From positions 128,691 to 192,690 of the forward strand of contig JBAYJP010000002.1 of the NCBI GenBank assembly GCA_041665025.1: a stretch of 64,000 nt of DNA, written 5' to 3'. Below the pieces are notes generated by a model, which searched no databases, was not told the DNA's origin, and saw only the letters and a program-made list of their open reading frames with translations. The DNA is from Candidatus Magasanikiibacteriota bacterium. GTDB lineage: Bacteria > Patescibacteriota > Patescibacteriia > Magasanikbacterales > UBA922. Positions 3,893 to 19,931 of the stretch are shown here, piece by piece (positions within the stretch are counted from its first letter, which is position 1; each line of letters opens with the position of its first letter). Made by a program: the position numbers and the translations under genes.

Positions 3893-4002
3893 AGAAAGAA
3901 TGTTGACAATTTCCAGCTTTTCACCTATAATAAACCATACTATTTTCTATATATTTTCACGCCTACCTCTACAAAAGAAAATAAATTTTCTTTTCATCCA
4001 CT

Positions 4003-4077
4003 GCGGGCATCATATAATGGTTATTATCCCAGTTTTCCAAACTGGTGACAGGAGTTCGATTCTCCTTGCCCGCTCCA
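4003..4077 (+). tRNA. tRNA-Gly (anticodon UCC) with encoded CCA
   Basis: Manual cloverleaf. Acceptor GCGGGCA/TGCCCGC. D-arm with GG. Anticodon stem CCAGT/ACTGG with loop TTTCCAA (U33, UCC, A37). T-arm AGGAG-TTCGATT-CTCCT. Discriminator T, then CCA. Confidence 0.75.
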
Positions 4078-5658
4078 AGTTGAAAAAACGGTCTGAAAAT
4101 GACTGTTTTTTCTTTTATCTTCGCACAAAACACTTGGTTCTACTCGGGCAATTTTTAAGATTTCGTTTTCAAGCCCGTTCTTCAAAGTGAGGTACGGTTT
4201 TTGTAGTTCAATACTGAGTTTTCCATCTCTAAAATAAAAGTTCTGACCAATGCATTTCAAAATATGCGTTTTGGTTTCAAAGTCCCCATGTTCAAACCAG
4301 TGCTTTGCATATGTAGCAAAATTAAATGTCTTTTCAGTGAGATCAAGCCAGTCGTCTACTCGCGTCTCGGTTTTCCTAATCTCAAGCTCTATTCGCCCCT
4401 TTTCTGACACCAAAGAACTTTTTTGTCCTCTAAATTCTTCTTCCGTTATCATCTCCTTTTTTGCATTTTCAGGAGAGATATACAAATTTATTAAATTATC
4501 TATGCGCCTAAGACAGGAATTATAATTATCTTGAAGGTTGCTGACGATAATGTTTCGGTCATACTCCTCTACAAGATTTTGGTCTCGCAAGACTTGAATT
4601 GCCCAGTGTAAAAATTCCTCTGGGATAGTAATACTGTCTAAGTAATCAGTTACTTGTTTTAACAATGCACTATGTTCTATAGATTTTTGATGACACTCAA
4701 TATCCCTGCGATTATGTGAGCAGTGGTGGTAAAGATACTGTTTAATTTTTCCGGTTGTTTTATTTTTCTTATGTTTTTCTTCGGCGACGATCATTCCTCC
4801 ACACTCTGCGCATTTAATCACTCCGCTAAATGGTAACCTCTTATTTTTTGGCCGCGGTTTACCCTTTTTACCCAAAATGGTCTGTGCCAAATCAAATTCT
4901 TCTTTTGTTATCATTGGTTTGTGTTTACCTTGATAAATCGTACTCTTGTACATAAATTCGCCACAATAAAACATATTATTAAGCATTTTGTAGGTTCCAT
5001 TAACACTCATCTTTTTGCCTTCTGATGTTCTTAAACCCCATTCTTCTGTGGCTATTCTTTTAATCTGCATTACTGAGTAGTTATCCGTTAGAAGTAAATC
5101 CCACATTTTTCTAACTAAAGAGAAACGCTCTTGATCTACGAATACAACTTTATTCCCTTTTTCTCCGAACTTGTCATTCAAGTAACCAATCGGGGCTTTA
5201 CCTGGCCGCCAACCCTTTTCTACCTTAGACTTCATACCGCGTGTAACATCTTTACTTAGGTCAATAATAAACTGATTTGCCATGCCAAGCTCTACTGCCA
5301 TCATAAGTACATTATCTGTCGGCAAATACTCACGCCCCGGGGTTATAATTGATTTCATCACCTCTTGCTGAAGTAACCACTGTATTTCCCCTCCATCCAC
5401 TGGATTTCGCGACAAACGATTGAGCTTCCAACAGATGATCGCGTCGGCTTGTCCACTCTTCAGCATGGCCATCATTTCGTTATACATCGGTCTTCCGGGC
5501 TGTTTGGCTGATTTTGACTCGCCGAATGTCTTAACAACATTTAGCCCCCTACGGGTAACTTCATATGCCAATTCGCGTCGTTGGTCTTCAATTGATTGAA
5601 CCTGACGATCTTCTGCATCGGTAGATTTTCTCAAATACATGATATATCGTAATTTCAT
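4024..5658 (-). CDS. Large serine recombinase (resolvase-type N-terminal catalytic domain, recombinase domain, zinc ribbon, coiled coil). Its 3' end overlaps the tRNA-Gly 3' half.
   Basis: N-terminal MYLRKSTDAEDRQ is the serine-recombinase catalytic Ser motif. Cys cluster CAECGG..HHCSH. 544 aa, typical size of large serine integrases. The ORF reads through tRNA positions 4024-4077. Confidence 0.85.
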   Translation of the reverse strand: MKLRYIMYLRKSTDAEDRQVQSIEDQRRELAYEVTRRGLNVVKTFGESKSAKQPGRPMYNEMMAMLKSGQADAIICWKLNRLSRNPVDGGEIQWLLQQEVMKSIITPGREYLPTDNVLMMAVELGMANQFIIDLSKDVTRGMKSKVEKGWRPGKAPIGYLNDKFGEKGNKVVFVDQERFSLVRKMWDLLLTDNYSVMQIKRIATEEWGLRTSEGKKMSVNGTYKMLNNMFYCGEFMYKSTIYQGKHKPMITKEEFDLAQTILGKKGKPRPKNKRLPFSGVIKCAECGGMIVAEEKHKKNKTTGKIKQYLYHHCSHNRRDIECHQKSIEHSALLKQVTDYLDSITIPEEFLHWAIQVLRDQNLVEEYDRNIIVSNLQDNYNSCLRRIDNLINLYISPENAKKEMITEEEFRGQKSSLVSEKGRIELEIRKTETRVDDWLDLTEKTFNFATYAKHWFEHGDFETKTHILKCIGQNFYFRDGKLSIELQKPYLTLKNGLENEILKIARVEPSVLCEDKRKNSHFQTVFSTWSGQGESNSCHQFGKLG

Positions 5659-5679
5659 ATAATTTTAATTAGGTAAATT

Positions 5680-5797
5680 AAAAGGGACGGCTAAGGTTGA
5701 CCCAAATCCGCTACCCCGAAGGATTGCCTCATTGGCATAGCCGCCCCTTTTAAGGGACGAGACAAAAAAACGGGGTTTTGATGGATTTTGGGTCAAC
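5680..5797. repeat. Nested inverted repeats immediately upstream of the recombinase start (candidate recombinase binding / att or res-like site)
   Basis: Inner IR: AAAAGGGACGGCTA (5680-5693) versus ATAGCCGCCCCTTTT (5737-5751). Outer IR: GGTTGACCCAAATCC (5695-5709) versus GGATTTTGGGTCAAC (5783-5797). Confidence 0.5.
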
Positions 5798-5825
5798 GAT
5801 TACATTATACCATAAGCAAATATTT

Positions 5826-6194
5826 TTAGAATGACTTAAAATTTTTGTTAAGGGTCTCCTCAATTTTTGAGACTCTTTCTCCTAAATCAGAGACTTCCAT
5901 GGCCTTAATCAAATGTCCAGATAGGTATCCCAAGCAATTTGCGATCTTTAATTCTATCAAGCCGCTGCGCACTTCATTGATTGTGGTTGCAAGTAGTACA
6001 ACCACATCTTTTGGTTTGTTGATAATAACTGGTGGGAGCCTGCTCCGGTTCTTCTTGGACATTCTTCCACCCCTAAGGATCGCCTCTCTTCTTTCTTTTT
6101 TTGTCTCTGGATTATGGATAAAGCAGAACCTGCTATTTTTCATTGCGCTGGCAAGACATTGTTTATTGTTAAATTTAATATAATTACATCTCAT
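5826..6194 (-). CDS. Hypothetical small protein (Cys/His-containing N-terminus), cargo of the putative element
   Basis: 122-aa ORF. Start overlaps the upstream ORF by 4 nt (operon-like). No recognisable family. Confidence 0.45.
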   Translation of the reverse strand: MRCNYIKFNNKQCLASAMKNSRFCFIHNPETKKERREAILRGGRMSKKNRSRLPPVIINKPKDVVVLLATTINEVRSGLIELKIANCLGYLSGHLIKAMEVSDLGERVSKIEETLNKNFKSF

Positions 6195-6544
6195 ACTTTT
6201 TTGAAAAATCTATAGGCCTTTACCATCTGTTCATATTCTTCTAATAATTTTTCTTTTATATCTTGCCTTTCTTCATGTTTTATTTCCCAGTCTCTTTGTT
6301 TAGCCAATAAACCAAGCATTTCATCATTCGTCTTTTCAGTCTGTCTAAGCATTTCAAATATCGTTGGATTATCTAAAAATAACTCTCTATATTCATTCGC
6401 TTCATCTTCATTTTTTATCCTCTGATAAATTGAGCGGCGCAATCGTAAAGATAACTCCACAAGTTGTGCTTCGGATAGGTTCCTAAATGGCCTATTATTC
6501 ACGGGAATGCTTTTTTCTATCTTTTTAATTCTTGATTCCATCAT
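6191..6544 (-). CDS. Hypothetical coiled-coil protein
   Basis: 117-aa ORF rich in charged residues, co-directional with and overlapping the next gene. Confidence 0.45.
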   Translation of the reverse strand: MMESRIKKIEKSIPVNNRPFRNLSEAQLVELSLRLRRSIYQRIKNEDEANEYRELFLDNPTIFEMLRQTEKTNDEMLGLLAKQRDWEIKHEERQDIKEKLLEEYEQMVKAYRFFKKV

Positions 6545-7081
6545 AAGCGTAGCTTATGGGGTATACCCCCACATATTTCTACTAAGTATTTATCGGATAT
6601 GGACAAGAGGGATTAAAAGCCCACTATTATACAGTAGCTTCTATTTCGGCCGTATTTCTCCGTTGTTTCTCGGTACGGCCTATGGCTCACTCTCCGTGGG
6701 GTCAGTACTCTGCCCGTTGGGTAACTCTATATCGCCAAGCCAATTCAATTTAACGATACAGACGGTCTTGGTTTATCGGCGTAAGGAGTTCCGATTGCTG
6801 TCGGAACCGCATCAGGATTACCAAGTCCTATGATTTGATGGCGTCCACGGGGTGGCTCATAGGTTCGCCCACCGTCCCCCGCAGTATTTAATCCCTCACC
6901 CAATTTCCGATATTATTCTTGAAACTGAGCATCTTCTTTTTTGATTGGTTTATAAATTAACCCAACAAGCTGGACGAGCTTTATTGCTTGTTCTCGTGCG
7001 TCTTCAAGACCGATCTCTTTACCAAAGAGGTTCTTGTAGAGTGTTTGAAATTTTGCAACTTGCTCATCCGATACCATACAA

Positions 7082-7363
7082 CTATGATTTACTGCTATAA
7101 ATTCTATTTTTTAGCATTTTGATATTATCAAAGTAAGCTCTTGCTCCCACATTCATTTTGTCACAAAAATAAGCACCAAACGCCTCCTCAACCTCAACTC
7201 CTTCCCTAAACCCAAAGAGCACCCTACGCGAGTTGGTCTTATCTAAAGATACGAGCTCCAAACCCACAGTTACAAGAGCTGCAGCACAACCCAGATCAGA
7301 TGTTGTGAAAATTTTTGGTTGTTCTTCTAACAATTGTTTATTTAATTCTAATCCAGTTTTCAT
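7082..7363 (-). CDS. Hypothetical protein
   Basis: 93-aa ORF, no recognised motif. Confidence 0.4.
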   Translation of the reverse strand: MKTGLELNKQLLEEQPKIFTTSDLGCAAALVTVGLELVSLDKTNSRRVLFGFREGVEVEEAFGAYFCDKMNVGARAYFDNIKMLKNRIYSSKS

Positions 7364-7510
7364 ATTTGCTATTGAATGTATTGCTTGTATTATGATGGGA
7401 AATCATTCTTTTTTTGATAGGTTTTTACTCTACCTCAAAAAATAAAAAAATGGCTTATATTAGCCATTTGATTTGACAAAATTAACACCCAGTTAAGGGA
7501 TAGTGTTACC

Positions 7511-8338
7511 TTAGTGGAAGCTTATGTCATATTCTTCTTTGTTTAGAGCATAGCCCCCAGTAGGCAGACTGATAATCAATTTTCTTTTTTTGTCTTGAGA
7601 TTTTTCTATTTGCATTTTTTTCAAAAAAATTTTATTAATATTTGATATCTCCTTTCCTATAAATTCAGCGTTCTTTTTTCTTAATAGTAATTCTGAAAGT
7701 TCTTTGCCGCTTAATTTTTTATTGCTAAGGAAGTCAATTATTTTTCGTCGGTTTCCTTTTATAGAATACTGTAATTTTTTTCCTCGTTCTATTCTCCAAA
7801 TTCCTGAATCAGAAGTAATATGGATAGTAAGTTTATTATCATCAAAACTATCATTGATCAAATCAACCTTTTTCTTTTCTTCTTTAAGATAATCAACAAA
7901 TTTCTTATTGCTGTGTTTCTTATTTTCACGCCGTTTTTTAAGTAGATTATTAATATAGTCAAAAATTTCTTTATCGTCCTCTGACAGACTAAATTTTGGC
8001 GACCCTACAAGGATATACTCCTTTTCAATTTGTGCAAGACATTTTTCAACTAAAATACGATCATGTTCCCAAACAATGTTCTTCTCTTGCAAGTCACTAA
8101 TAAGATCGTCTGGCAGCAGGAGCAGTAAATCGCGTTTAACACTATCAAATTCAGGGAAATCTAACATTGATTGGAGGTAACTTTTAATGAGCATGTAAAT
8201 ACCATTTAGTTCTCTATCCCCAATTGCCAAATAGCCTGTTAATACCAAATCTGTCATGTCTAATAATTTGTCCAAATATAGCTGGCTTAGGAAGAGACGC
8301 TGCCCAAAGTTTGTATAGGTTTTTCTTTTCATATTCAT
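7511..8338 (-). CDS. Hypothetical protein (Lys-rich, possible C-terminal winged-helix)
   Basis: 275-aa ORF with no overlapping alternative. Followed by a hairpin/T-run at 7455-7480. Confidence 0.5.
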   Translation of the reverse strand: MNMKRKTYTNFGQRLFLSQLYLDKLLDMTDLVLTGYLAIGDRELNGIYMLIKSYLQSMLDFPEFDSVKRDLLLLLPDDLISDLQEKNIVWEHDRILVEKCLAQIEKEYILVGSPKFSLSEDDKEIFDYINNLLKKRRENKKHSNKKFVDYLKEEKKKVDLINDSFDDNKLTIHITSDSGIWRIERGKKLQYSIKGNRRKIIDFLSNKKLSGKELSELLLRKKNAEFIGKEISNINKIFLKKMQIEKSQDKKRKLIISLPTGGYALNKEEYDISFH

Positions 8339-8516
8339 AATAATTTTACTTATATATTACGCCTTTACATTGTAAGTTACAATGTTTTAATCATTATAAC
8401 AATTGTCTAATTACAACCACTGAAAAATTACGCTTGGAACTTGATTTCTGGCCCAAAATGATATAGTATTAAGTGGACAACTTAAGACCTAAACCCGTCT
8501 CGGGCATGGTCAAAAA

Positions 8517-8635
8517 CACTGCACAAACATAGAGATGGCTATTCCGTCTCTGGCATTGTTTGTGCAGTCAGTAGCCGAAAGGTTACTGGGTTCCGAAAGG
8601 GACCGCCAGTGTACGGGTAGCCTTTTTTGTTTTCC
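8517..8635 (+). promoter_or_regulatory. Structured leader with an intrinsic-terminator-like T-run directly upstream of a secreted-protein gene (candidate attenuator / cis-regulatory RNA)
   Basis: Perfect 12-bp inverted repeat ACTGCACAAACA...TGTTTGTGCAGT (8517-8568) enclosing a second stem. Two CCGAAAGG motifs. GGGTAGCC followed by TTTTTTGTTTT (8621-8635). The gene starts at 8652/8661. Confidence 0.4.
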
Positions 8636-8651
8636 GAATATCAATAACACA

Positions 8652-9350
8652 ATGTGTAATATGGATAGATATAAAATTAAAAAAGGAATTTTCAATAAAT
8701 CCACAATAACAATTGTCGTTACTTTTTTGATTTTAGGGTCTGTATATTCTGGTGTTGTGCTGTATAGAAAATCTCTGGCTAACAAAACACAAGCGGAATT
8801 ATTGCACGTCACTGGAGCACAAGAAGAACCCACAGAAATTACAGGAGAGAAATTCTATCAAATTACCCTAAGTTCATCACCATATAGAAGATCAGATGAT
8901 GACCGTCTGGGCGATATAATGCTGGAGGTCAATTTGAAGAATTTGAACATTACTCCTTTTATTACCAATTTAGGTACTGACAAATGCATTCTTTCTGACA
9001 AGTTAGGCAGACAATACCAAGCGGACCTCATAAGCGAAGTCCCACTTAAAAAAGCACTTCTTACGGGGGAGGAAGTATCTGTAAAAATTGACGGGGCATT
9101 ATACATAAATGTTCTTCAAGAAGGAGAAACATCTTGCCAAAAAGAAGGGTCTGGAGTGATTGACTGGGTTCATAACAATGATTGGGTCAAAAACGCTGTT
9201 AAATGCGTCTACAGCCCTTCTGGAGAGTGTACATGTGAGGACATTGGTCCACTCTCAGTGAATGAATGCACTTTCCGCGTTACTTCGGATGGAAAACAGG
9301 CGTCTAACGGCTGGGGTCAATATCCATTAGTTGTACCTATCCAGAATTAA
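8652..9350 (+). CDS. Secreted/membrane-anchored Cys-rich hypothetical protein. The ORF-track start at 8535 lies inside the leader hairpin and is probably not used.
   Basis: MCNMDRYKIKK followed by a TM segment STITIVVTFLILGSVYSGVVLY. Multiple Cys in the C-terminal third. Confidence 0.55.
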   Translation: MCNMDRYKIKKGIFNKSTITIVVTFLILGSVYSGVVLYRKSLANKTQAELLHVTGAQEEPTEITGEKFYQITLSSSPYRRSDDDRLGDIMLEVNLKNLNITPFITNLGTDKCILSDKLGRQYQADLISEVPLKKALLTGEEVSVKIDGALYINVLQEGETSCQKEGSGVIDWVHNNDWVKNAVKCVYSPSGECTCEDIGPLSVNECTFRVTSDGKQASNGWGQYPLVVPIQN

Positions 9351-9361
9351 ACCTGAAATAT

Positions 9362-9790
9362 ATGAACAAGAAAATTATTATTTTTAGCATAATTATCATT
9401 ATCGTTACCATTCTTGCTGGTGGTATCTACAAGGTCGTATCATTAAACCAAAAAATCTCTTATTACAAAAACAAGGAAGCCGAGGATTACTTCAAAAAGA
9501 AATTAGAGTGCGGTGAAATGGCCGCCCCAATTAAAGAGGAACTTCAAAAATATAACTCGGGCCCTCTTTCTCTATTTGTAGAAAATTTTGAGATGGTTTT
9601 TTATAGCCCTAAAGAAAATAGCTGTATTTATTCCATAGAGAGACTTTACACGGGGGACCAACCCGAACGGGAATACGTTGTCTATAATGCCCTCACAAAA
9701 CACAAGATTACTTCTTTTCAATTTCCATCCCAGTGGGAAAATTACAAATCATTTTTATTAGAGTATTCAAACGGAGAGATTAGATTGTAA
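9362..9790 (+). CDS. Membrane-anchored hypothetical protein
   Basis: N-terminal hydrophobic helix IIIFSIIIIIVTILAGGIY. 142 aa. Confidence 0.5.
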   Translation: MNKKIIIFSIIIIIVTILAGGIYKVVSLNQKISYYKNKEAEDYFKKKLECGEMAAPIKEELQKYNSGPLSLFVENFEMVFYSPKENSCIYSIERLYTGDQPEREYVVYNALTKHKITSFQFPSQWENYKSFLLEYSNGEIRL

Positions 9791-9791
9791 A

Positions 9792-10211
9792 TTGATTACT
9801 GTGGCCATCATATCAACATTTTATAGCATCTTGATACCCATTGAAAACCTAAGAAGGGTTTTATCAAAAGAACAACTACAAGAAATTCTCCCTAAAAGAA
9901 CTTGCTATGGAGGAATTTGGTTTGATGATTATTTGTATTGTGAGATATCTATGGGACCAGCGGATAATGAGGCTATTGTTGAGTTTTGGAAAGAAAAGGG
10001 GTTAGTGCCATTTGAGACCAGAGACGGCAAACAATACTGGAACGAATTGTGTTTGATCCCATCTCCGGATAATCAGCCAACTTTGCCTTGTGATTGGGTA
10101 GAAATTAGATATGAAGATAAGCATGGATACTGCTATAATTTAAGGGGCAAACCACAAGGTGAAATTGTGAGAGGACCGAAACCAGTAAAAAATTTCTTTG
10201 ATCTCAACTAA
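9792..10211 (+). CDS. Hypothetical protein
   Basis: 139-aa ORF starting 2 nt after the previous stop (operon). Confidence 0.5.
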   Translation: MITVAIISTFYSILIPIENLRRVLSKEQLQEILPKRTCYGGIWFDDYLYCEISMGPADNEAIVEFWKEKGLVPFETRDGKQYWNELCLIPSPDNQPTLPCDWVEIRYEDKHGYCYNLRGKPQGEIVRGPKPVKNFFDLN

Positions 10212-10245
10212 TTATTTAACAATCCTTATAATAAAGCGTATAAAC

Positions 10246-10278
10246 AAAAAAGCGGGCGAAGCCCGCGTTCTTGTTTTT
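10246..10278 (+). terminator. Rho-independent terminator
   Basis: GCGGGC-GAA-GCCCGC stem followed by GTTCTTGTTTTT. Confidence 0.7.
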
Positions 10279-10712
10279 AAGTTTTTAGTTCTCTAATCGT
10301 TTACAACGTTCACATAGTCTACGTCCATCAGTACCTTGTCTAAGATTTTCTTTTTCTATATTATTACCCTCTGTACATTTATTAGAATTATGATAAACTT
10401 TTATCCATGTTAACTTTGAATGATAAGGTTGTACTTTCATATAGTAATAGTAATAGTAATAGTAATATTAAAATTAATTATTTATAAGTTGTTAATTTTT
10501 TGAAGACCTGCTATAATTAATTTGTTAGGGTAATTATAACTTGCAGGAAGACGCGATTAATTAACGATTGTTGCGTCTTTTTTATTGGGTATTTTGATTG
10601 ACATATATCTACTGTTAGATAATAATATTTTAACCTATGCGGTAAGTCTTGTCAATAGCTACTTATACCCACCGCTTGACTTTCTTATTACTATCAGATA
10701 AAATCAAAATAT

Positions 10713-11048
10713 ATGGATAACAATACCAAACAAATAATTGGAGGCAACATCCGCGCAAAACGGGAGGCCTTGGGTTTATCCCAAGAAGAACTCGCCCAAA
10801 AAGTAGGAAAGCAAACTGCTACTTATATAGCTTTTATTGAAAAAGGTGAAAGAAATATAACCACAGTAGATTTAATGGCGATAGCTAAACAGCTTGGCAC
10901 TACTGTTGCGGTTCTTATTGGTGAAGATAAAAAGGCAAAAACACCTTCTGTCGTTGATGTTTTAAGGTCTGCAAAAGAACTCAGTAAAGCTGACCGCGAA
11001 AAAATTGAAGCTATTTATAACTTTGCTAAAAACAAAAAAGATGAGTAA
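10713..11048 (+). CDS. XRE-family helix-turn-helix transcriptional regulator
   Basis: GNIRAKREALGLSQEELAQKVG..TYIAFIEKGERN is the Cro/C1 HTH signature. Confidence 0.85.
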   Translation: MDNNTKQIIGGNIRAKREALGLSQEELAQKVGKQTATYIAFIEKGERNITTVDLMAIAKQLGTTVAVLIGEDKKAKTPSVVDVLRSAKELSKADREKIEAIYNFAKNKKDE

Positions 11049-11556
11049 TGACTACGAAAGTGTATCTGATGATTTGTTGACCCCCAACTTAAAGGGAGCC
11101 AGACTTAGAGCTAAGAATATTTGGAATGAATTTTGTGGAGCAAAAATACCGGTAAAACTTAATGACATAATCCAAAAAATGGGGATTGATATTCGGGGAG
11201 AGGATCTAAATTCTGCCGATGCCATCACAAGAATGGATAGCAACGGCGTTTGCTGTATGGTTTATGACCAAAATAGTTCCGTTGTGAGGAAAAGATTCAC
11301 AATAGCACACGAAATAGGACACTTAGCAATGGAACACACATCATCGTGGGGAGGGTGTAATCAGTTTTCAAAAAAATCTCAGGAAAAGGAGGCTGATGCT
11401 TTTGCTGGTGAACTGTTAGTGCCATCTGAAGACTTGAAGGAATTTACTAAACAAAAACGCACAATTCAAGAAATAATGAGTAGATACTGGATAAGTAATC
11501 CTGCGGCCTTTGTGGCAGTGCAAAATAATCGTTTATTAGATAGGATTAAAATATAA
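11041..11556 (+). CDS. ImmA/IrrE-family zinc metallopeptidase (partner of the XRE regulator)
   Basis: HEIGHLAMEH (HEXXH). Start overlaps the XRE stop by 8 nt. The XRE+ImmA pairing is typical of phage/ICE immunity modules. Confidence 0.8.
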   Translation: MSNDYESVSDDLLTPNLKGARLRAKNIWNEFCGAKIPVKLNDIIQKMGIDIRGEDLNSADAITRMDSNGVCCMVYDQNSSVVRKRFTIAHEIGHLAMEHTSSWGGCNQFSKKSQEKEADAFAGELLVPSEDLKEFTKQKRTIQEIMSRYWISNPAAFVAVQNNRLLDRIKI

Positions 11557-11689
11557 TTTTACTGTGTATTTCCCACATAAAAAATTTGGCAGTTGGTTAT
11601 ATCATGTTTAATCTATTAGGTATTTGGAAAAGACAAAATAATACTTTTTAACTTTACTGCTGTGATACCAGCGTCGTATCTTTTATCAA

Positions 11690-11770
11690 AATAGTTCTGA
11701 CGTCTTTCACTAATTAAGCTCTCGTTAAAACTTCGCTTAACAAGCGTAGTTTTTTGTTTACCCTTACGTG
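11690..11770 (+). repeat. Copy 1 of a repeated sRNA-3'/terminator module
   Basis: GTTCTGACGTCTTTCACTAATTAAGCTCTCGTTAAAACTTCGCTTAACAAGCGTAGTTTTTTGTTTACC matches 14660-14735 and 16446-16490. Confidence 0.5.
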
Positions 11771-11795
11771 TGAGTAGAACAAGGCAGTAAAACTA

Positions 11796-11824
11796 TTGAC
11801 AAAAAGGAGATTTTATGCTATACT
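11796..11824 (+). promoter_or_regulatory. Consensus sigma70-type promoter reading into the GC-rich cassette
   Basis: TTGACA-N17-TATACT in AT-rich DNA. A structured leader (inverted repeats) follows, then the GGAGAGG RBS of the first GC-rich ORF. Confidence 0.6.
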
Positions 11825-11989
11825 TTTCGGTTCGATTATAATTCGAACTGTGCTCTTTTTAGCAAAAAATTAGATTAAAAAGACTTGGGTCACAAGAGAA
11901 CTAAATTATTTTAGTTTTGTTTTGACCCAGGTCTCGTTTGCTTGGTTGCGACGAGACTCCGAGACGGATAACACGGAGAGGTGATACCG

Positions 11990-13045
11990 ATGGACCGCAC
12001 CGAACTGACCACCCTCGCCACCCGCCTGCTCAACCCCATCGCCGGCCTGCACAAGCAGGTGATCGCCAGCTTCGACACCCCCCAGGTGGGCCCGTACCAC
12101 CAGGAGGGGAACTACCTGGTCGACCACCTCATCCGAATGTTCAACGAGTGGAGACGCCTCGCCGGCAGACCCGAGATGTCCGAGGTCCTCGAGGTCGCCC
12201 TCAACCAGGTCGAGTACCACATCGAAAACGGTGAGGACCTCATCGCCCTCTACATCGTCCTCCACGACGCGTGGAAGGGTGACGAGGTGATGCAGGTGAA
12301 GCTCGACGGTCTGCCCGAGATGACCATGACGCGCAAGTCCTGGGCCAAGTGGGTCAAGACCATGGGCTCGCAGGACAAGGACCCCGTCGACATCGCCAAG
12401 GCCAAGGGCATGCTGCAGGTCTCCTACGAAGACCACGCGGAAGTCGCTGCCGTACAGCTTGAGTGCTTCACCGAAACCCTCAAGCTGCCGGAGTGGTTCG
12501 TGCGCGTAGTTCTGCTGCACATGGTGGCCATCCAGCTCGCTCAGGTGAACGTCCCGCTCTACGAGCGGTCGTTCGCCAACCTGCCCGAGGAGGCCTGGCA
12601 GTTCCTGACGGTCGTGACCTGGCTCGACGCTCAGGGTGCGGTCGGGGAAGACGGCAACTGCAACATCTCCGGCTGGAACAACCTCATCTCGTCCAAGTGG
12701 GCCGCCGAGAGCTACAGGCGCGTCGAGCGCGCCATCAGGAAGGCGGACCGACTGGACGGGCAGAAGATGGAGCGCGCTCTGTCCGATCTGCGCAATTCGC
12801 ACGACATCTTCCACAACGAGACGCCGGATGAGTCCATCGACCGCCTGAAGCGCGAGTGCGCGCTGCCCAAGGTCACGGAGGCTGACGTCCGCAACGCGCT
12901 GGCCAACATCGAGGGCCTGGGCGAAGCGCTCATCGCGACCATCGCGGCCGAGATGGCCACGGACGGCAAGCTGAGCCCGGACACGGGCAGGGCGCTCGGC
13001 CGGTTCAACAAGCCGGTCCGCGACGCGCTCAAGAGCCTCGGCTGA
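11990..13045 (+). CDS. HD-motif (LHDxxK) putative metal-dependent phosphohydrolase encoded in very GC-rich foreign DNA. ATG at 11990 is preferred to the GTG at 11981.
   Basis: GPYHQEG...YIVLHDAWKGDE resembles HD-domain His / His-Asp motifs. Strong codon bias. RBS GGAGAGG 7 nt upstream. Confidence 0.6.
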   Translation: MDRTELTTLATRLLNPIAGLHKQVIASFDTPQVGPYHQEGNYLVDHLIRMFNEWRRLAGRPEMSEVLEVALNQVEYHIENGEDLIALYIVLHDAWKGDEVMQVKLDGLPEMTMTRKSWAKWVKTMGSQDKDPVDIAKAKGMLQVSYEDHAEVAAVQLECFTETLKLPEWFVRVVLLHMVAIQLAQVNVPLYERSFANLPEEAWQFLTVVTWLDAQGAVGEDGNCNISGWNNLISSKWAAESYRRVERAIRKADRLDGQKMERALSDLRNSHDIFHNETPDESIDRLKRECALPKVTEADVRNALANIEGLGEALIATIAAEMATDGKLSPDTGRALGRFNKPVRDALKSLG

Positions 13046-13187
13046 CGACCACAACCCCGAACCCCGGGCGAAAGGGGTGACAGTTCGGAAAGACGGACAA
13101 CTCTCGTGTGTCGCGTACGTTCGTACGTAGTGCGATAGTCGAGGAAATACGCGCGGGGAGCTGGATGCAAAAGCGTTCAGCACCCCG

Positions 13188-13255
13188 TGGATTTTCCGGT
13201 GAGACCGGAACTGATGAGTCCTTTAACGATAGAATACGACAGGACGAAATCCAAA
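13188..13255 (+). ncRNA. Type III hammerhead ribozyme (HH1)
   Basis: GGAU-U|UUCCGG-UGAGA-CCGGAA-CUGAUGA-GUCC-(20 nt loop)-GGAC-GAAA-UCC. Full conserved core. Predicted cleavage after 13194. Confidence 0.8.
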
Positions 13256-13407
13256 AACTGTTCTTTACAATTCGACATGGTTCTTAAATAAAAAAACGGA
13301 CGTGGGTCAACACATGGCCAGGAGTTCTCCTGGACAGATGGACCCCACGTCCGGAGGTTTTGGTCAACCACCGGATGAACTTCGAACGCACACACGGAGG
13401 TGCACTC

Positions 13408-14373
13408 ATGACCCAGTTCACGAATGCGGTGACGCACAGCGGCGACATGCACCCGGACGACGTCATGGCGGGTGGCTTCCTCAAGGAGACCAACCCCGGC
13501 ATCCGCTTCGTCCGCACCCGCGACAAGACCGTGCTCGAGGCGGCGATGTCCGACGACGACACCGTCGTCTACGACGTCGGCTTCGTGTACGACGAGTCGC
13601 GGAACTGCTACGACCACCACCAGCGGCAGAACGCCCCCAACCCCCGCCCGAACGGCGTGCCGTTCTCGAGCTTCGGGCTCCTGTGGCAGCGCTTCGGCCT
13701 GTCCTACTGCGAGCGCCTCGTGGCCAAGTACGGCAAGGACATCGACCCCGCCCAACTCCACGAGCTCATCGACCACGAGCTGGTCCAGGGCATCGACGTC
13801 ATCGACACCGGCGCGGTGGACAACCCCCGCTTCCAGCCGAAGGTCGGCGAGGTGTCCGTCGAGGTCAAGACCTTCGCGCTGGCCCTGTTCGAGCTCGCCC
13901 CCCAGCCGCTCCTGTTCGAGATCCCGCCTTACGACGAGGCCTACAACCAGGCCACCGACATCGCCGCGGTCTTCCTGAACCGCTTCGCCGAGGCCTGCCT
14001 GGCCAAGCTCTGCGGGCGTCAGCTTCTCGTGACCGGCCGCCGGGTCGAGGAGTGCGTCGTCGTGTCGCCCAAGGTCATCCCGGACTGGAGCGACGTCGTC
14101 AGCGCGGAGTTCCCCGAGACCCTCTACTACCTCGAGCCGGACACCAACGACCAGACGGGCAAGGCCTACATGCTGTGGCAGGTGCCCGTCGAGCCGCGGG
14201 GCTTCGTCGGCCGCAAGTCGCTCCCGGAGAGCTGGGCCGGCAAGCGCGGCACGGACCTCGTGGCCGTGACCGGCATCGAGGGCTCGGGCTTCTGCCACGT
14301 CGGGTGCTTCGTGGGCGGCGGCGAGACCCTCGAGGCGACGCTCGCGATGGCGAAGGCGGCCATCGCGGCGTAG
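13408..14373 (+). CDS. MYG1/UPF0160-family metal-dependent hydrolase homologue (GC-rich foreign gene)
   Basis: N-terminal THSGDMHPDDVMAGGFL and YDHHQ motifs recalled as the MYG1 signature. Start taken at MTQFTNAV (13408). Confidence 0.7.
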   Translation: MTQFTNAVTHSGDMHPDDVMAGGFLKETNPGIRFVRTRDKTVLEAAMSDDDTVVYDVGFVYDESRNCYDHHQRQNAPNPRPNGVPFSSFGLLWQRFGLSYCERLVAKYGKDIDPAQLHELIDHELVQGIDVIDTGAVDNPRFQPKVGEVSVEVKTFALALFELAPQPLLFEIPPYDEAYNQATDIAAVFLNRFAEACLAKLCGRQLLVTGRRVEECVVVSPKVIPDWSDVVSAEFPETLYYLEPDTNDQTGKAYMLWQVPVEPRGFVGRKSLPESWAGKRGTDLVAVTGIEGSGFCHVGCFVGGGETLEATLAMAKAAIAA

Positions 14374-14477
14374 CGCGGATCAAATCCGCGCAGAGGACCA
14401 TGTCGGCTACTGATTCAGTCGGCGGCGCAAGCTGCTGAAGGAGTCGTAGACGTCGGGGTGTGTATTTCACGCACCCC

Positions 14478-14538
14478 GGTCCTCTACTGATAATGTCAGT
14501 ACTGATGAGCCCATTTGTTTATGCAGGGCGAAAGGACA
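14478..14538 (+). ncRNA. Type III hammerhead ribozyme (HH2)
   Basis: GGUCCU-C|UACUGA-UAAUG-UCAGUA-CUGAUGA-GCCC-(13 nt loop)-GGGC-GAAA-GGAC. Full conserved core. Predicted cleavage after 14484. Confidence 0.8.
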
Positions 14539-14542
14539 AATT

Positions 14543-14575
14543 AAAAACCACTTATAGTAATATGAGTGGTTTTTA
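14543..14575 (+). terminator. Bidirectional intrinsic terminator (start of repeated module copy 2)
   Basis: AAAAACCACT-TATAGTAATAT-GAGTGGTTTTT. Confidence 0.65.
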
Positions 14576-14611
14576 ATTAGAAATAAGATTTATTATTGTG
14601 AATTTGCAGAG

Positions 14612-14640
14612 TTGACCAAAACTAAATTATGCGTTATACT
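14612..14640 (+). promoter_or_regulatory. Consensus promoter inside the repeated module
   Basis: TTGACC-N17-TATACT. The homologous copy at 16197-16225 reads TTGGCC-N17-TATATT. Confidence 0.5.
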
Positions 14641-14646
14641 CATCGG

Positions 14647-14724
14647 CAGTTTCAATACTTCGGTTCTAACCTCCTTTACTAAGGAGCTCTCAATAAAACT
14701 TCGCTCAAACAGCGTAGTTTTTTG
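14647..14724 (+). ncRNA. Candidate small RNA (about 80 nt) ending in an intrinsic terminator. A paralogous copy lies at about 16232-16316 and a 3' fragment at 11690-11750.
   Basis: Promoter about 7 nt upstream. Internal hairpin CCTCC-TTTACTAA-GGAG. Terminator CTTCGCT-CAAAC-AGCGTAG plus TTTTTT. Homologous 5' part (TCGGCAGTTT..GTTCTAA) in copy 2. Confidence 0.35.
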
Positions 14725-14759
14725 TTTACCCGCAAGTGTGAGTAGAACCGAGCTGCAGA

Positions 14760-15548
14760 CTATTTCAAACTATTCCATAGCATTTCCCATACAAACCGTT
14801 GGTTGTCTGCATTTGCTTGGTCTTCAATAATTACTAAGATCATACTGTCCCACGACACGGTCATGACGCGATCACCATAAATGATGGTATGACTTTTGAA
14901 AAATTTCCCATCTGGTAAAAATTTTACATCGCGCAATTCTTCTTTTGCCCGCTTAGCTTCCTGTAAGCCAAATTTAGATTTTTCTACAATTATCCTGGCT
15001 TTTATCCCACGTCTAATTCTTTCCTTAGTAAATTTCTTGTATTCTTCAGGAAAAATCGTTAGAAGTTCGGTTGATGTCCCATAGACCAAATTTTCTTTTT
15101 GGGTCATGTCGTGCCTTATCCTGTCCAAATAGGCCTGCCATACATTTTCTTTACCCTCATAATACAAGACCTTTGGTTTTTTATTTGTTTTATTTTGAAT
15201 GGCACGAAGCTCCGGTAAAAGATTAATAAAAGAAATTTCTTTATCATGTAACGATTGATAAATTTTGTCCGGATCAACTGCTTCCAGCAGTCTTTTTTTA
15301 CCACTCGGCGTTTGTTGAACAAGACCTTTGCTAATAAGATCATCCAAAACATCGTATGTAGACACACGGTGTAGGGATGCTACCTTAGCAATATTTTGTA
15401 CAGGCGCAGGCCCTAATTGTAGACAAGCCAAATAAACCTTAGCTTCTTTTATGCTTAGCCCAAATTCTTGAAGTTGCGTTGGAGTAATCATAGATGTTGT
15501 AGAGAAAATACTACATTTTAGTATATAACAATACCAACAATTAATCAA
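14760..15548 (-). CDS. TrmB-like winged-helix transcriptional regulator (paralogue 1 of 3)
   Basis: N-terminus LQEFGLSIKEAKVYLACLQLGPAPVQNIAKVASLHRVSTYDVLDDLISKGLV is the TrmB HTH signature. Confidence 0.7.
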   Translation of the reverse strand: MINCWYCYILKCSIFSTTSMITPTQLQEFGLSIKEAKVYLACLQLGPAPVQNIAKVASLHRVSTYDVLDDLISKGLVQQTPSGKKRLLEAVDPDKIYQSLHDKEISFINLLPELRAIQNKTNKKPKVLYYEGKENVWQAYLDRIRHDMTQKENLVYGTSTELLTIFPEEYKKFTKERIRRGIKARIIVEKSKFGLQEAKRAKEELRDVKFLPDGKFFKSHTIIYGDRVMTVSWDSMILVIIEDQANADNQRFVWEMLWNSLK

Positions 15549-15669
15549 TTTAGCTAAAATTAAATAAAAAATAGCTATTTTATAACAGTCTATACGTAGA
15601 ACTTTATTGACAGAATAAAAAAATATTATAAGGTTAGTTAAGATCCATCAACCGGTATGGAGGGACCAC

Positions 15670-16020
15670 ATGGAGTGGCACAATTGGGGTAAACGCCCGA
15701 ACTCTCAAACCATGAGGCATATGGTAGAGTGGGAGGAGTGCCCTTATTGCGGGCATAGAGAAAAAGATTTTCTTAACTTCATTGTTGGTTTCTCAAATAG
15801 TGAAGATATTTTTACCAAAAGCACTTGGGGAGAAAATATCTTGTGGGGCGCAGAAGCCTTGGAGTGCCCAGTATGCTTTGAAAATTCTTGGAGACATACA
15901 AAATATCGGAACCCGGACACTTTTTCCTGCCTTGTGGGTGAGGGTAAAATAGTGCTTCGCGTGCCAGGGGCAGACGAGGCCTTTCACACCATGCTCGAGA
16001 TGCACAAACAGAAAGAATAG
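15670..16020 (+). CDS. Zinc-ribbon hypothetical protein (two CxxC pairs)
   Basis: CPYCGH ... CPVCFEN. Moderately GC-enriched. Followed by GC hairpins at 16040-16110. Confidence 0.5.
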   Translation: MEWHNWGKRPNSQTMRHMVEWEECPYCGHREKDFLNFIVGFSNSEDIFTKSTWGENILWGAEALECPVCFENSWRHTKYRNPDTFSCLVGEGKIVLRVPGADEAFHTMLEMHKQKE

Positions 16021-16126
16021 TCCCGTGTATCTCGTCCGACTGGCTGGGTGCGACCACAAGTCAGCCCAGCCTCCTTGAGTGGTAATATTTATTACCTCTT
16101 GAGGAGGACTGACTTGTGTAAAAATA

Positions 16127-16260
16127 TAAAACCACTTATAGCAATATGAGTGGTTTTTGATTAAAGAGAATTATTTACTGTTGTGAATTTACCGAGTTGG
16201 CCAAAACTAAATTATGCGTTATATTCGTCGGCAGTTTGAGCACCTCAGTTCTAATGTTAA
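16127..16260 (+). repeat. Copy 3 of the terminator-promoter-sRNA module (about 85% identical to 14543-14675)
   Basis: AAAACCACTTATAGCAATATGAGTGGTTTTT ... TTGGCC-N17-TATATT ... TCGGCAGTTTGAGCACCTCAGTTCTAA. Confidence 0.55.
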
Positions 16261-16426
16261 GTACTAATGAGCTCAAATAAAATCACTCCAATTTGTTGGG
16301 GTGATTTTATTTTGTACTGTAAAGGGGAACCGAACGGGAAAGGGAGAAAACGGTAGTTTTCTCTTGCCGAGGAAAGTTCACGAAAACCCGAAGGTTTTCG
16401 TGGGAGGAGCCTAGGGCGACGAATGA

Positions 16427-16449
16427 GATTTCTCCTTGCCCGCTCACCA
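16427..16449 (+). repeat. Degenerate direct repeat of the tRNA-Gly 3' end (candidate distal att site of the integrated element)
   Basis: GATTTCTCCTTGCCCGCTCACCA versus tRNA 4058-4077 GATTCTCCTTGCCCGCTCCA. A 15-mer is identical and the rest differs by two 1-nt indels. Confidence 0.5.
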
Positions 16450-16542
16450 TAAAACTTCGCTCAAACAGCGTAGTTTTTGTTTACCGGTAAGGAGAAAACA
16501 ATCGCGGTCGAAGCGACTTGTGATTGTTTAAAAGAGGACTAA

Positions 16543-19345: not shown

Positions 19346-19607
19346 ATATTTTTGTTAGTTATGAATTAAATATACTTTGTTGTGCATGAGTAATAACATA
19401 AATCCCTATATAACCCGCAAACAAATTATTTGTCTCCATAGATTAGCCATATTTCGAGCTACCTACCTTTTTTAGTATAATATATAAATACGATATATAA
19501 ACTATCCAACATGTCAAGAGTAATGGATTAAACCCTTTACATAGCAATTCTGACCTAGGCTTGATTTATTATTACTTTTCCATTATACTACTCACCACAA
19601 AAGATCG

Positions 19608-19715
19608 CGGGGTAGAGCCACATAAAATGGACTTCGTCCATCACGTGGCTAGATAATAAGCTTTTTGAAGTATAGTTATCTAGCGGCGTGATACTACGAA
19701 GTTAGTATTTTACGC
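19608..19715 (+). other. Duplicated 13-nt tRNA-fMet 5' fragment followed by three consecutive strong hairpins (leader of tRNA-fMet)
   Basis: CGCGGGGTAGAGC at 19608-19620 is identical to the tRNA 5' end at 19716-19728. Hairpins GCCAC..ATGGAC-TTC-GTCCAT..GTGGC, CTAGATAA..TTATCTAG and CGGCGT..ACGCCG. Confidence 0.5.
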
Positions 19716-19789: not shown

Positions 19790-19849
19790 CTAAATTTTGC
19801 ATGTGCAATTATTCTGTGATAATATATGTTGCACATCCAAAAATGGCAT

Positions 19850-19876
19850 GCGGTAGTAGTTCAGTTGGCTAGAACG
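19850..19876 (+). pseudogene. Truncated/degenerate copy of the tRNA-Gly(GCC) 5' portion
   Basis: The first 27 nt GCGGTAGTAGTTCAGTTGGCTAGAACG are identical to 19932-19958. The downstream sequence lacks a foldable anticodon arm. Confidence 0.5.
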
Positions 19877-19931
19877 CCCGGCCGGGAGGTCGCCGTTCGG
19901 CTCTGATTCTACATTCGAATTTGATAAACAT

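Follow-up and report, generated by a model that had tools for sequence, protein, structure and literature searches.

A serine-recombinase island at the 3′ end of a tRNA-Gly gene and, beside it, a small structured element with arms that match tRNA ends

How a large serine recombinase (LSR), an enzyme of a kind that leaves a very short shared core, could lie within an element bounded by a long copy of a tRNA 3′ end, the mark of tyrosine integrases, is the question raised by a locus in a 64,000-nt stretch of DNA from a Candidatus Magasanikiibacteriota bacterium (contig JBAYJP010000002.1, positions 128,691 to 192,690; hereafter, the window). The first-pass annotation had placed a putative integrated element between tRNA-Gly(TCC) (4003-4077, plus strand; ARAGORN; Rfam, 59.8 bits) and a degenerate repeat of its 3′ end at 16427-16449, and had itself pointed to this tension. 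The repeat does exist, its exact stretch being a 16-mer, TTCTCCTTGCCCGCTC, rather than the 15-mer counted earlier, common to the tRNA 3′ end (4060-4075) and to 16430-16445. The two single-base indels described around it are also present: an additional T (GATT-T-CTCC) and an additional A (GCTC-A-CCA) distinguish the flanks of the copies. Even with two mismatches allowed, the 16-mer occurs only twice in the window, against an expectation of 0 (100 shuffles).

An integrated element with an LSR gene at the tRNA-Gly gene was borne out by the analysis, with a different right boundary. Positions 4076-16274 are probably a composite genomic island, inserted by the LSR encoded at 4024-5658 precisely at the tRNA-Gly(TCC) 3′ end. 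The 16-mer at 16430-16445 did not arise from this insertion and belongs to the 3′ arm of a separate element, here called E; accordingly, the right edge of the island is 16274, not 16449, and the tRNA-like repeat that had been taken for its boundary lies outside it, in E. The first hint that the 16-mer might be no simple attachment (att) scar came from its overlap with 16441-16504, one copy of a terminator-containing repeat family with three copies in the window (the others at 11717 and 14685).

The island edges were defined by an empty site, for which the first-pass annotation had proposed a search. It was found in L038, a locus that came from a metagenome scan and represents a related species, with shared non-coding DNA ~88-91% identical to the window; L038 is a closer relative than the six Magasanikbacteria/Parcubacteria loci obtained by scanning one genome per species with the first 43 nt of tRNA-Gly. 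Positions 16-122 of L038 correspond to window 3973-4075 (90.7% identity, blastn) and positions 119-342 to window 16271-16485 (88.4%, blastn), and L038 runs without a break from the tRNA-Gly 3′ end straight into the sequence found at 16271 in the window, which identifies 4076-16274 as an insertion of 12,199 bp that L038 lacks, with GCTC on either side (4072-4075 and 16271-16274). With a slash marking the junction, L038 reads ...CCTTGCCCGCTC/AGATAAAATCGCTCC..., the left edge in the window ...CCTTGCCCGCTC/CAAGTTGAAAAAAC... and the right edge ...ACTAATGAGCTC/AAATAAAATCACTCC...; the empty-site junction expected from the window edges, with E kept in place, is CCCGCTC/AAATAAAATC. The sole sequence common to both island edges is the 4-bp GCTC, as judged against L038, and the 2 bp exchanged would lie somewhere within it. 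Because so short a shared sequence is what a serine recombinase leaves, the tension disappears: the LSR would have left the short core, and the long repeat would stem from a different, earlier insertion.

The crossover zone at 4072-4075 (attL) comprises the last four nucleotides of the tRNA before CCA, and the CCA itself (4075-4077) is completed by island DNA. In the mechanism suggested by these sequence comparisons, which also underlie what is proposed below for E, strand exchange would have taken place within GCTC and the island would have supplied the bases that follow (CAAG...), so that the tRNA would remain intact, now with an encoded CCA. The surroundings are displaced as well: the trio tRNA-Gly(TCC), tRNA-Met and tRNA-Gly(GCC) is spread over 15.6 kb in the window, whereas in five of the six related Magasanikbacteria/Parcubacteria genomes tRNA-Met and tRNA-Gly(GCC) follow within 52-1815 nt of tRNA-Gly(TCC).

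The LSR (544 aa; 4024-5658, minus strand) contains all three domains by which its classification was to be checked (PF00239, PF07508 and PF13408). In the PF00239 match (E=6.9e-17), Y8, R10 and the nucleophilic serine S12 are invariant in 26 homologues; in the zinc-ribbon domain, the four cysteines C283, C286, C313 and C322 are invariant as well. The gene reads into the tRNA, as had been noticed, with its last 17 codons antisense to tRNA-Gly. Its conserved C-terminus (..VFSTWS; ..VFSxWSG across homologues) is encoded across or at the crossover, with TGGAGC, antisense to GCTCCA, specifying the Trp-Ser pair; the terminal part of the recombinase gene would therefore contain the P′ half of attP. 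The reconstructed att sites are attP GAGCTC/CAAG and attB CCCGCTC/AAAT, with the circle junction GAGCTC/CAAGTTG, and from these the circular form would give the LSR an alternative C-terminus. The insertion itself was presumably catalyzed by this LSR. Upstream of its start, two inverted repeats (5681-5694/5739-5752 and 5696-5710/5783-5797), read from the sequence and previously described as nested, are in fact interleaved, forming a pseudoknot-like arrangement over 5681-5797, between the LSR start and the next gene.

The association of the LSR with tRNA-Gly extends across genomes. The LSR has 3668 homologues at E<=1e-20, most of them from Patescibacteria; those carrying a name belong to this group. 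Five homologues with 50-68% identity (P0003, P0005, P0008, P0048 and P0105) were examined for context, and at all 10 of their loci the LSR open reading frame (ORF) terminates, in antisense orientation, within the 3′ end of tRNA-Gly (TCC or GCC), with different host neighbors. The cargo of the related islands includes a small terminase (L110), a primase (L113), and CBASS and restriction genes (L117 and L119). In viral contigs, direct searching found no close LSR relative, a profile search found one relative, with 40% identity and without an adjoining tRNA, and the predicted attP junction had no match. Serine integrases are mostly known for landing in protein-coding genes, and LSRs of Patescibacteria that target tRNA genes did not turn up in our literature searches. 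A large clade of LSRs in the candidate phyla radiation (CPR) is tied to the very end of tRNA-Gly, with an attP half-site that appears to mimic the tRNA; these enzymes offer a natural, testable case of site reading and a supply of new integrases whose targets are defined.

A conserved 27-nt motif, GTTCTAAC...GAGCTC (GTTCTAA...GAGCTC), lies at the island end. At the right edge it reads GTTCTAATGTTAAGTACTAATGAGCTC (16248-16274). The same 27-nt pattern recurs at 14663-14689, with a chance expectation of 0.01 in the window, and a degenerate copy, AGTTCTGACGTCTTTCACTAATTAAGCTC (11695-11722, plus strand; repeat family D1/D2), lies further left. The motif is conserved elsewhere, in L043, L062 (twice), L007 and L030, as well as on the tRNA strand in L110 and L112, ~9.6 and 10.9 kb, respectively, from the LSR gene. 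The distance from its T-loop-like GTTC to the crossover is 27 nt, versus 22 nt in the tRNA (9 copies). In serine-integrase attB sites, the motif of the zinc-ribbon domain lies 5 bp closer to the center than in attP (PMC3783163), and the offset of 27 versus 22 nt matches this geometry. We therefore infer that the end motif is the P half-site of attP (with attR at 16248-16274) and the tRNA 3′ end the B half-site; the motif would imitate the sequence from the tRNA T-loop to the 3′ end with five extra bases. No clear motif was seen in the B′ and P′ halves. Two cargo blocks in L044 end in a version of the motif that corresponds to tRNA-Gln, GTTCCAACATCGTCCCAGACTGCGAAC, likewise with 27 versus 22 nt. 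Each of the two end modules of the window also contains an outward promoter (TTGACC/TTGGCC-17-TATACT/TATATT, within 14612-14689 and 16197-16274), and an RNA of ~60-90 nt is predicted to run across attR, from the outward promoter through the end motif to the trailer terminator.

The sequence to the right of the island begins with a terminator hairpin, T1 (16275-16312, plus strand; inverted repeat I25), which is the first sequence after the tRNA in the L038 empty site. Element E follows (16313-16449, plus strand; nhmmer E=1.9e-35 with a profile built from 65 members of the family; fold z=-3.1), consisting of a 5′ arm (16321-16335), a conserved core (16336-16426) and a 3′ arm (16427-16449). Next comes a trailer terminator of the T2 type, ACCATAAAACTTCGCTCAAACAGCGTAGTTTTT (16446-16485, plus strand), also found after E in L038 and L016 and after the island ends in L007 and L030. 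This T2 trailer is probably the original tRNA-Gly trailer, displaced by the insertion of E, a reading consistent with L018, where E is followed by a sequence matching the trailer of the unbroken tRNA in L008.

E is polymorphic as an insertion in its own right and has many family members. Comparison with L008 and L006 shows that tRNA-Gly(TCC) of L018 contains 171 additional nt: a new terminator comes after the upstream tRNA 3′ end, and the native trailer and tRNA-Met stand after the downstream copy. Like a miniature integrative element, E thus brings along a terminator and a tRNA 3′ end that replaces the original one. The window segment 16313-16449 is also homologous to a 116-nt unit in L005, which lies between two identical 63-nt copies of the tRNA-Gly 3′ end with its trailer. 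A metagenome scan with 20 specified bases of the first hairpin returned 100 loci, in which ~70 copies form one family; the window holds one. The family shares a conserved core of ~95 nt, with a terminator on each side of E. The 5′ arm is an inverted copy of the T-loop, the 3′ strand of the T-stem and 0-8 nt of the acceptor of the neighboring tRNA, and the 3′ arm is a direct copy of the 3′ strands of T-stem and acceptor together with the discriminator. Of 71 testable copies, 58 have a tRNA gene on the same strand with its end 48-108 nt upstream, and these tRNAs cover 21 anticodon types; the copies without a tRNA directly upstream include tandem copies and copies located behind an island end motif, such as that of the window.

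E folds as a single strand, as judged from covariation in its core. In hairpin P3, 100% of cells are paired and 27 are changed on both sides, which 0 of 500 shuffles reach, and its five G-U cells fall on the tRNA-sense strand. Helix P2 was fixed by the search pattern and is hence uninformative, and RNAalifold recovered only two of the hairpins. The arm-to-arm pairing P1 is moderately specific (-16.3 kcal/mol for cognate versus -12.4 for non-cognate arms) and weak in some copies, including that of the window; we do not claim it as a conserved helix. E matches no Rfam family, with only chance-level hits over 16273-16430 (snR64, E=0.66; ylbH, E=3.5), its core pattern had no match in the viral contigs scanned, and literature searches returned no description of it; thus, E is apparently an undescribed element.

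Several explanations of E were considered and rejected. It is unlikely to be part of a group I intron in the tRNA: the upstream tRNA is intact, and the published introns of Patescibacteria tRNAs sit elsewhere, at anticodon position 35/36. No link to the GC-rich hammerhead cassette described below emerged, the two occurring together only in L038. No protein family recurs beside E, the neighbors being assorted housekeeping genes, no LSR was found in the E-bearing loci, and E is absent from six LSR loci (L110-L115).

Further observations come from comparing copies of E. Two copies in L062 share a long P4 hairpin missing in the other copies, suggesting spread within one genome with re-targeting. 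At orthologous loci (window 4060-4075 and 16430-16445; L038 105-122 and 283-301), the T-stem has changed by a compensatory pair (GGGG/CCCC to GGAG/CTCC), and the 3′ arm of E follows it, with CTCC in the window versus CCCC in L038, whereas the 5′ arm does not. Such tracking points to an exchange of sequence with the tRNA or to selection that keeps the two identical. L044 (240-8560) contains an array of tRNA-Gln, T1-E, a block from a 918-aa surface protein to an end motif, T1-E, a second block (peroxiredoxin and a 1169-aa FG-GAP protein, again closed by an end motif) and T1-E; the three E copies agree among themselves in their arms (CCTAG), which do not match the resident tRNA (CCCTG). In the window, E (~170 bp) would have entered the same tRNA gene earlier, bringing a replacement tRNA 3′ end and T1 and pushing the original tRNA 3′ end and trailer downstream. 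One may speculate, with considerable doubt, that E represents a new class of small structured mobile element whose arms copy the 3′ end of the adjoining tRNA, that each insertion creates a fresh tRNA-like landing site, and that, together with serine recombinases specific for tRNA-Gly or tRNA-Gln, this process builds integron-like arrays of integrase-less cassettes on CPR tRNA genes. Be that as it may, an element that follows tRNAs of at least 21 anticodon types with a strongly conserved core could be new mobile DNA or RNA.

Other tRNA-like duplications occur near these genes. About 100 nt upstream of tRNA-Met lies a 13-nt copy of the tRNA-Met 5′ end with hairpin-rich filler (window 19606-19715), and a truncated pseudo-tRNA-Gly(GCC) (19847-19928) starts with a 30-nt exact duplicate of the start of the real gene; the tRNA cluster has thus been hit repeatedly. 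In L098 (3000-3190), a different structured insert is located between tRNA-Ser and a copy of E and terminates with a further copy, belonging to the insert itself, of the tRNA-Ser T-arm plus 3′ end (GTGAGTTCGAATCTCACCCTCACCGC); it may represent a second family of tRNA-trailing elements. In CPR genomes, a tRNA-like repeat close to a tRNA gene should be taken for the boundary of an island only after an empty site has been looked for.

The island is built of three modules, each closing in an end motif followed by a terminator-type trailer, and thus looks like a composite, cassette-array-like assembly. Module I (4076-11722) contains the LSR gene, small ORFs, a LOOT RNA motif and an XRE/ImmA pair, and ends in the degenerate motif copy. 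On the minus strand at 5826-8338 are five small ORFs without assigned function, one with a DUF5659 domain (7082-7363; Pfam), and a DUF5659 gene adjoins the LSR gene in L112 and L117 as well. The LOOT RNA motif (RF03000; 8486-8604, plus strand) scores 81.3 bits in Rfam against a gathering score of 46.4; it immediately precedes the ORF at 8535-9350 and extends into its start. An XRE-type helix-turn-helix protein (PF01381; 10713-11048) and an ImmA/IrrE metallopeptidase (PF06114; 11005-11556) are encoded next, both on the plus strand.

Module II (11723-14689, plus strand) comprises a T2-type terminator, a consensus promoter read from the sequence (TTGACA-17-TATACT; 11796-11824), and two GC-rich ORFs, with a hammerhead-like motif behind each. 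The ORFs lie at 11990-13045 and 13408-14373 (MYG1; Pfam), both on the plus strand. The hammerhead-like motifs (13187-13254 and 14477-14539, plus strand) are sub-threshold in Rfam, scoring 22.3 and 27.4 bits as hammerhead type III against a gathering score of 48.5, with the core CUGAUGAG..CGAAA present; both are conserved in L038, and literature searches found no description of hammerheads in CPR. The module closes with a terminator (14539-14578), an outward promoter (14612-14640; both on the plus strand and read from the sequence) and the end motif. L038 contains a homologue of the AT-rich scaffold of this module, with 82-90% identity, carrying three unrelated GC-rich ORFs; taken together, these features resemble a conserved RNA scaffold on which GC-rich genes can be exchanged. 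The two window ORFs have 63-69% GC within a 38% GC genome (11796-14539; compare L038 380-3350 and L122 7700-9110). MYG1 homologues in other CPR contigs have 68% GC in genomes of 38-44% GC, and the homologues share a leader motif, GGTTTTGGTCAACC..GGAGGTGC-ATG.

Module III (14690-16274) includes a T2-type terminator, a TrmB regulator (14760-15548, minus strand; Pfam), a 116-aa ORF (15670-16020, plus strand), a terminator (16123-16162), an outward promoter (16197-16225) and the end motif. A comparable integrase-less block of 2.6 kb, with Bro-N and TrmB, is found in L007 between tRNA-Gly and an end motif. The cargo listed in the first-pass annotation is thus recovered for the XRE, ImmA/IrrE and TrmB proteins, whereas the 116-aa product, previously a "Zn-ribbon" protein, and the hammerheads reach only sub-threshold scores. 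That annotation had left the choice between a genomic island and a degenerate prophage: no phage domain was found in the Pfam scan of 17 island ORFs, in which no tyrosine-integrase domain appeared either, and the ten unannotated island proteins had no match in PHROG. It is the lack of PHROG matches that leads us to call the element an island rather than a prophage.

The order of events favored here is that E entered the tRNA-Gly gene and the island later would have landed between the tRNA and T1. Several points weigh against this account. L038 is a related organism (~88-91% identity), not the same population. The hammerhead/GC-rich module is inside the island in the window and to the right of E in L038, so that the two loci differ by more than one simple insertion, and no single clean series of events leads from the L038 arrangement to the three modules of the window. 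Five of 10 island right ends (window, L043, L062 and two in L044) abut E, above its general frequency, and a functional link between E and islands is therefore possible. In addition, no candidate recombination directionality factor was recognized for the island, and the B′ and P′ half-sites lack clear symmetry to B and P.

The juxtaposition of island ends and E could instead mean that one element extends from the tRNA to 16449, with E as its own right arm and the tRNA repeat as an att duplication. The L044 array is readable as cargo units ending in E and flanked by tRNA-like repeats, and in L043 and L062 the end motif is directly followed by T1-E. Yet T1-E is kept at the L038 empty site, the island ends in L110, L112, L007 and L030 have plain trailers without E, and E stands alone, without cargo, after 58 tRNA genes; moreover, a serine recombinase neither needs nor creates a 16-bp repeat. 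We consider a single element improbable. Still less probable is that no insertion took place and the 12.2 kb are ancestral, deleted in the L038 lineage. A comparison of two genomes cannot by itself separate insertion from deletion, but a deletion would have had to restore a perfect tRNA-trailer junction at a 4-bp repeat, a recombinase gene occupies that junction in six independent LSR lineages, and the tRNA trio is compact in five of the six other relatives. Furthermore, so precise a deletion would amount to excision by the recombinase, that is, to the same biology.

Least credible of all is an assembly chimera, in which the island, or its block of 60-69% GC, was mis-joined to the contig. The window DNA is part of the MEGAHIT metagenome contig k141_138385 (ENA ERZ27249449; 440 kb), and the flanking genes, for a 1184-aa lamin-tail/PKD protein and for type IV pili, together with host DNA of ~38% GC, point to a CPR bacterium as the host. 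The GC content does jump sharply at 11.9-14.5 kb, and the Logan contigs are interrupted at 16338 and at either border of the GC-rich ORF. On the other hand, the independent assembly of another run, in Logan contigs L003 and L121, shows no difference from the window and reproduces E with its flank and the MYG1 ORF exactly; the MYG1 protein is identical to one in an NCBI Candidatus Magasanikbacteria metagenome-assembled genome; L038 has the same scaffold with other GC-rich ORFs; and the MYG1 homologues of other CPR contigs show the same contrast in GC content. Insertion of an island beside a pre-existing E thus remains the preferred explanation.

The integrated element is ordinary in kind, an LSR island; its target, tRNA-mimicking end and modular build are unusual. 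Prophages and islands with serine integrases include phiC31, Bxb1, A118/LI and SCCmec CcrAB. The window island resembles them in the resolvase, recombinase and zinc-ribbon architecture of its LSR, the position of the integrase gene at one edge, the very short core shared by the junctions and, if the half-sites are assigned as proposed here, the 5-bp outward shift of a motif in attP relative to attB. It differs in targeting the extreme 3′ end of a tRNA gene with the tRNA kept intact, in a P half-site that seems to imitate the tRNA T-loop and 3′ end, in belonging to a large LSR clade specific to Patescibacteria, and in holding integrase-less modules that end in the same site; unlike the prophages, it yielded no phage structural genes among the ten unannotated ORFs compared with PHROG.

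The tRNA-targeting genomic islands with tyrosine integrases (P4-like), reportedly treated by Williams in 2002, share with the window island the insertion at the 3′ part of a tRNA gene, the restoration of the tRNA and the integrase gene adjoining it. In contrast to them, the island has no tyrosine integrase among the 17 scanned ORFs, its edges share 4 bp rather than 15-60, and its right edge at 16274 lies 156 nt before the 16-mer, the long tRNA-like repeat being part of the other element. With integron cassette arrays, it has in common tandem integrase-less modules with a conserved end site, a single recombinase gene beside them, and cargo that varies between genomes (modules II and III of the window, L007 and L044). 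The recombinase, however, is a serine enzyme and not IntI, a tRNA gene serves as the anchor of the array, and in place of attC the ends that recur are 27-mers resembling a tRNA.

For E, to our knowledge without an associated enzyme, leads are provided by integron attC sites, the attP hairpin of CTX phage, miniature inverted-repeat transposable elements and the guide RNAs of IS110-type elements. Like these, E is small, hairpin-rich and without its own recombinase, its two arms repeat the target in inverted and direct orientation, and the target sequence is duplicated. What sets E apart is that its arms copy the adjoining tRNA instead of being fixed terminal repeats, and that it belongs to no Rfam family and brings its own terminator and a replacement tRNA 3′ end.

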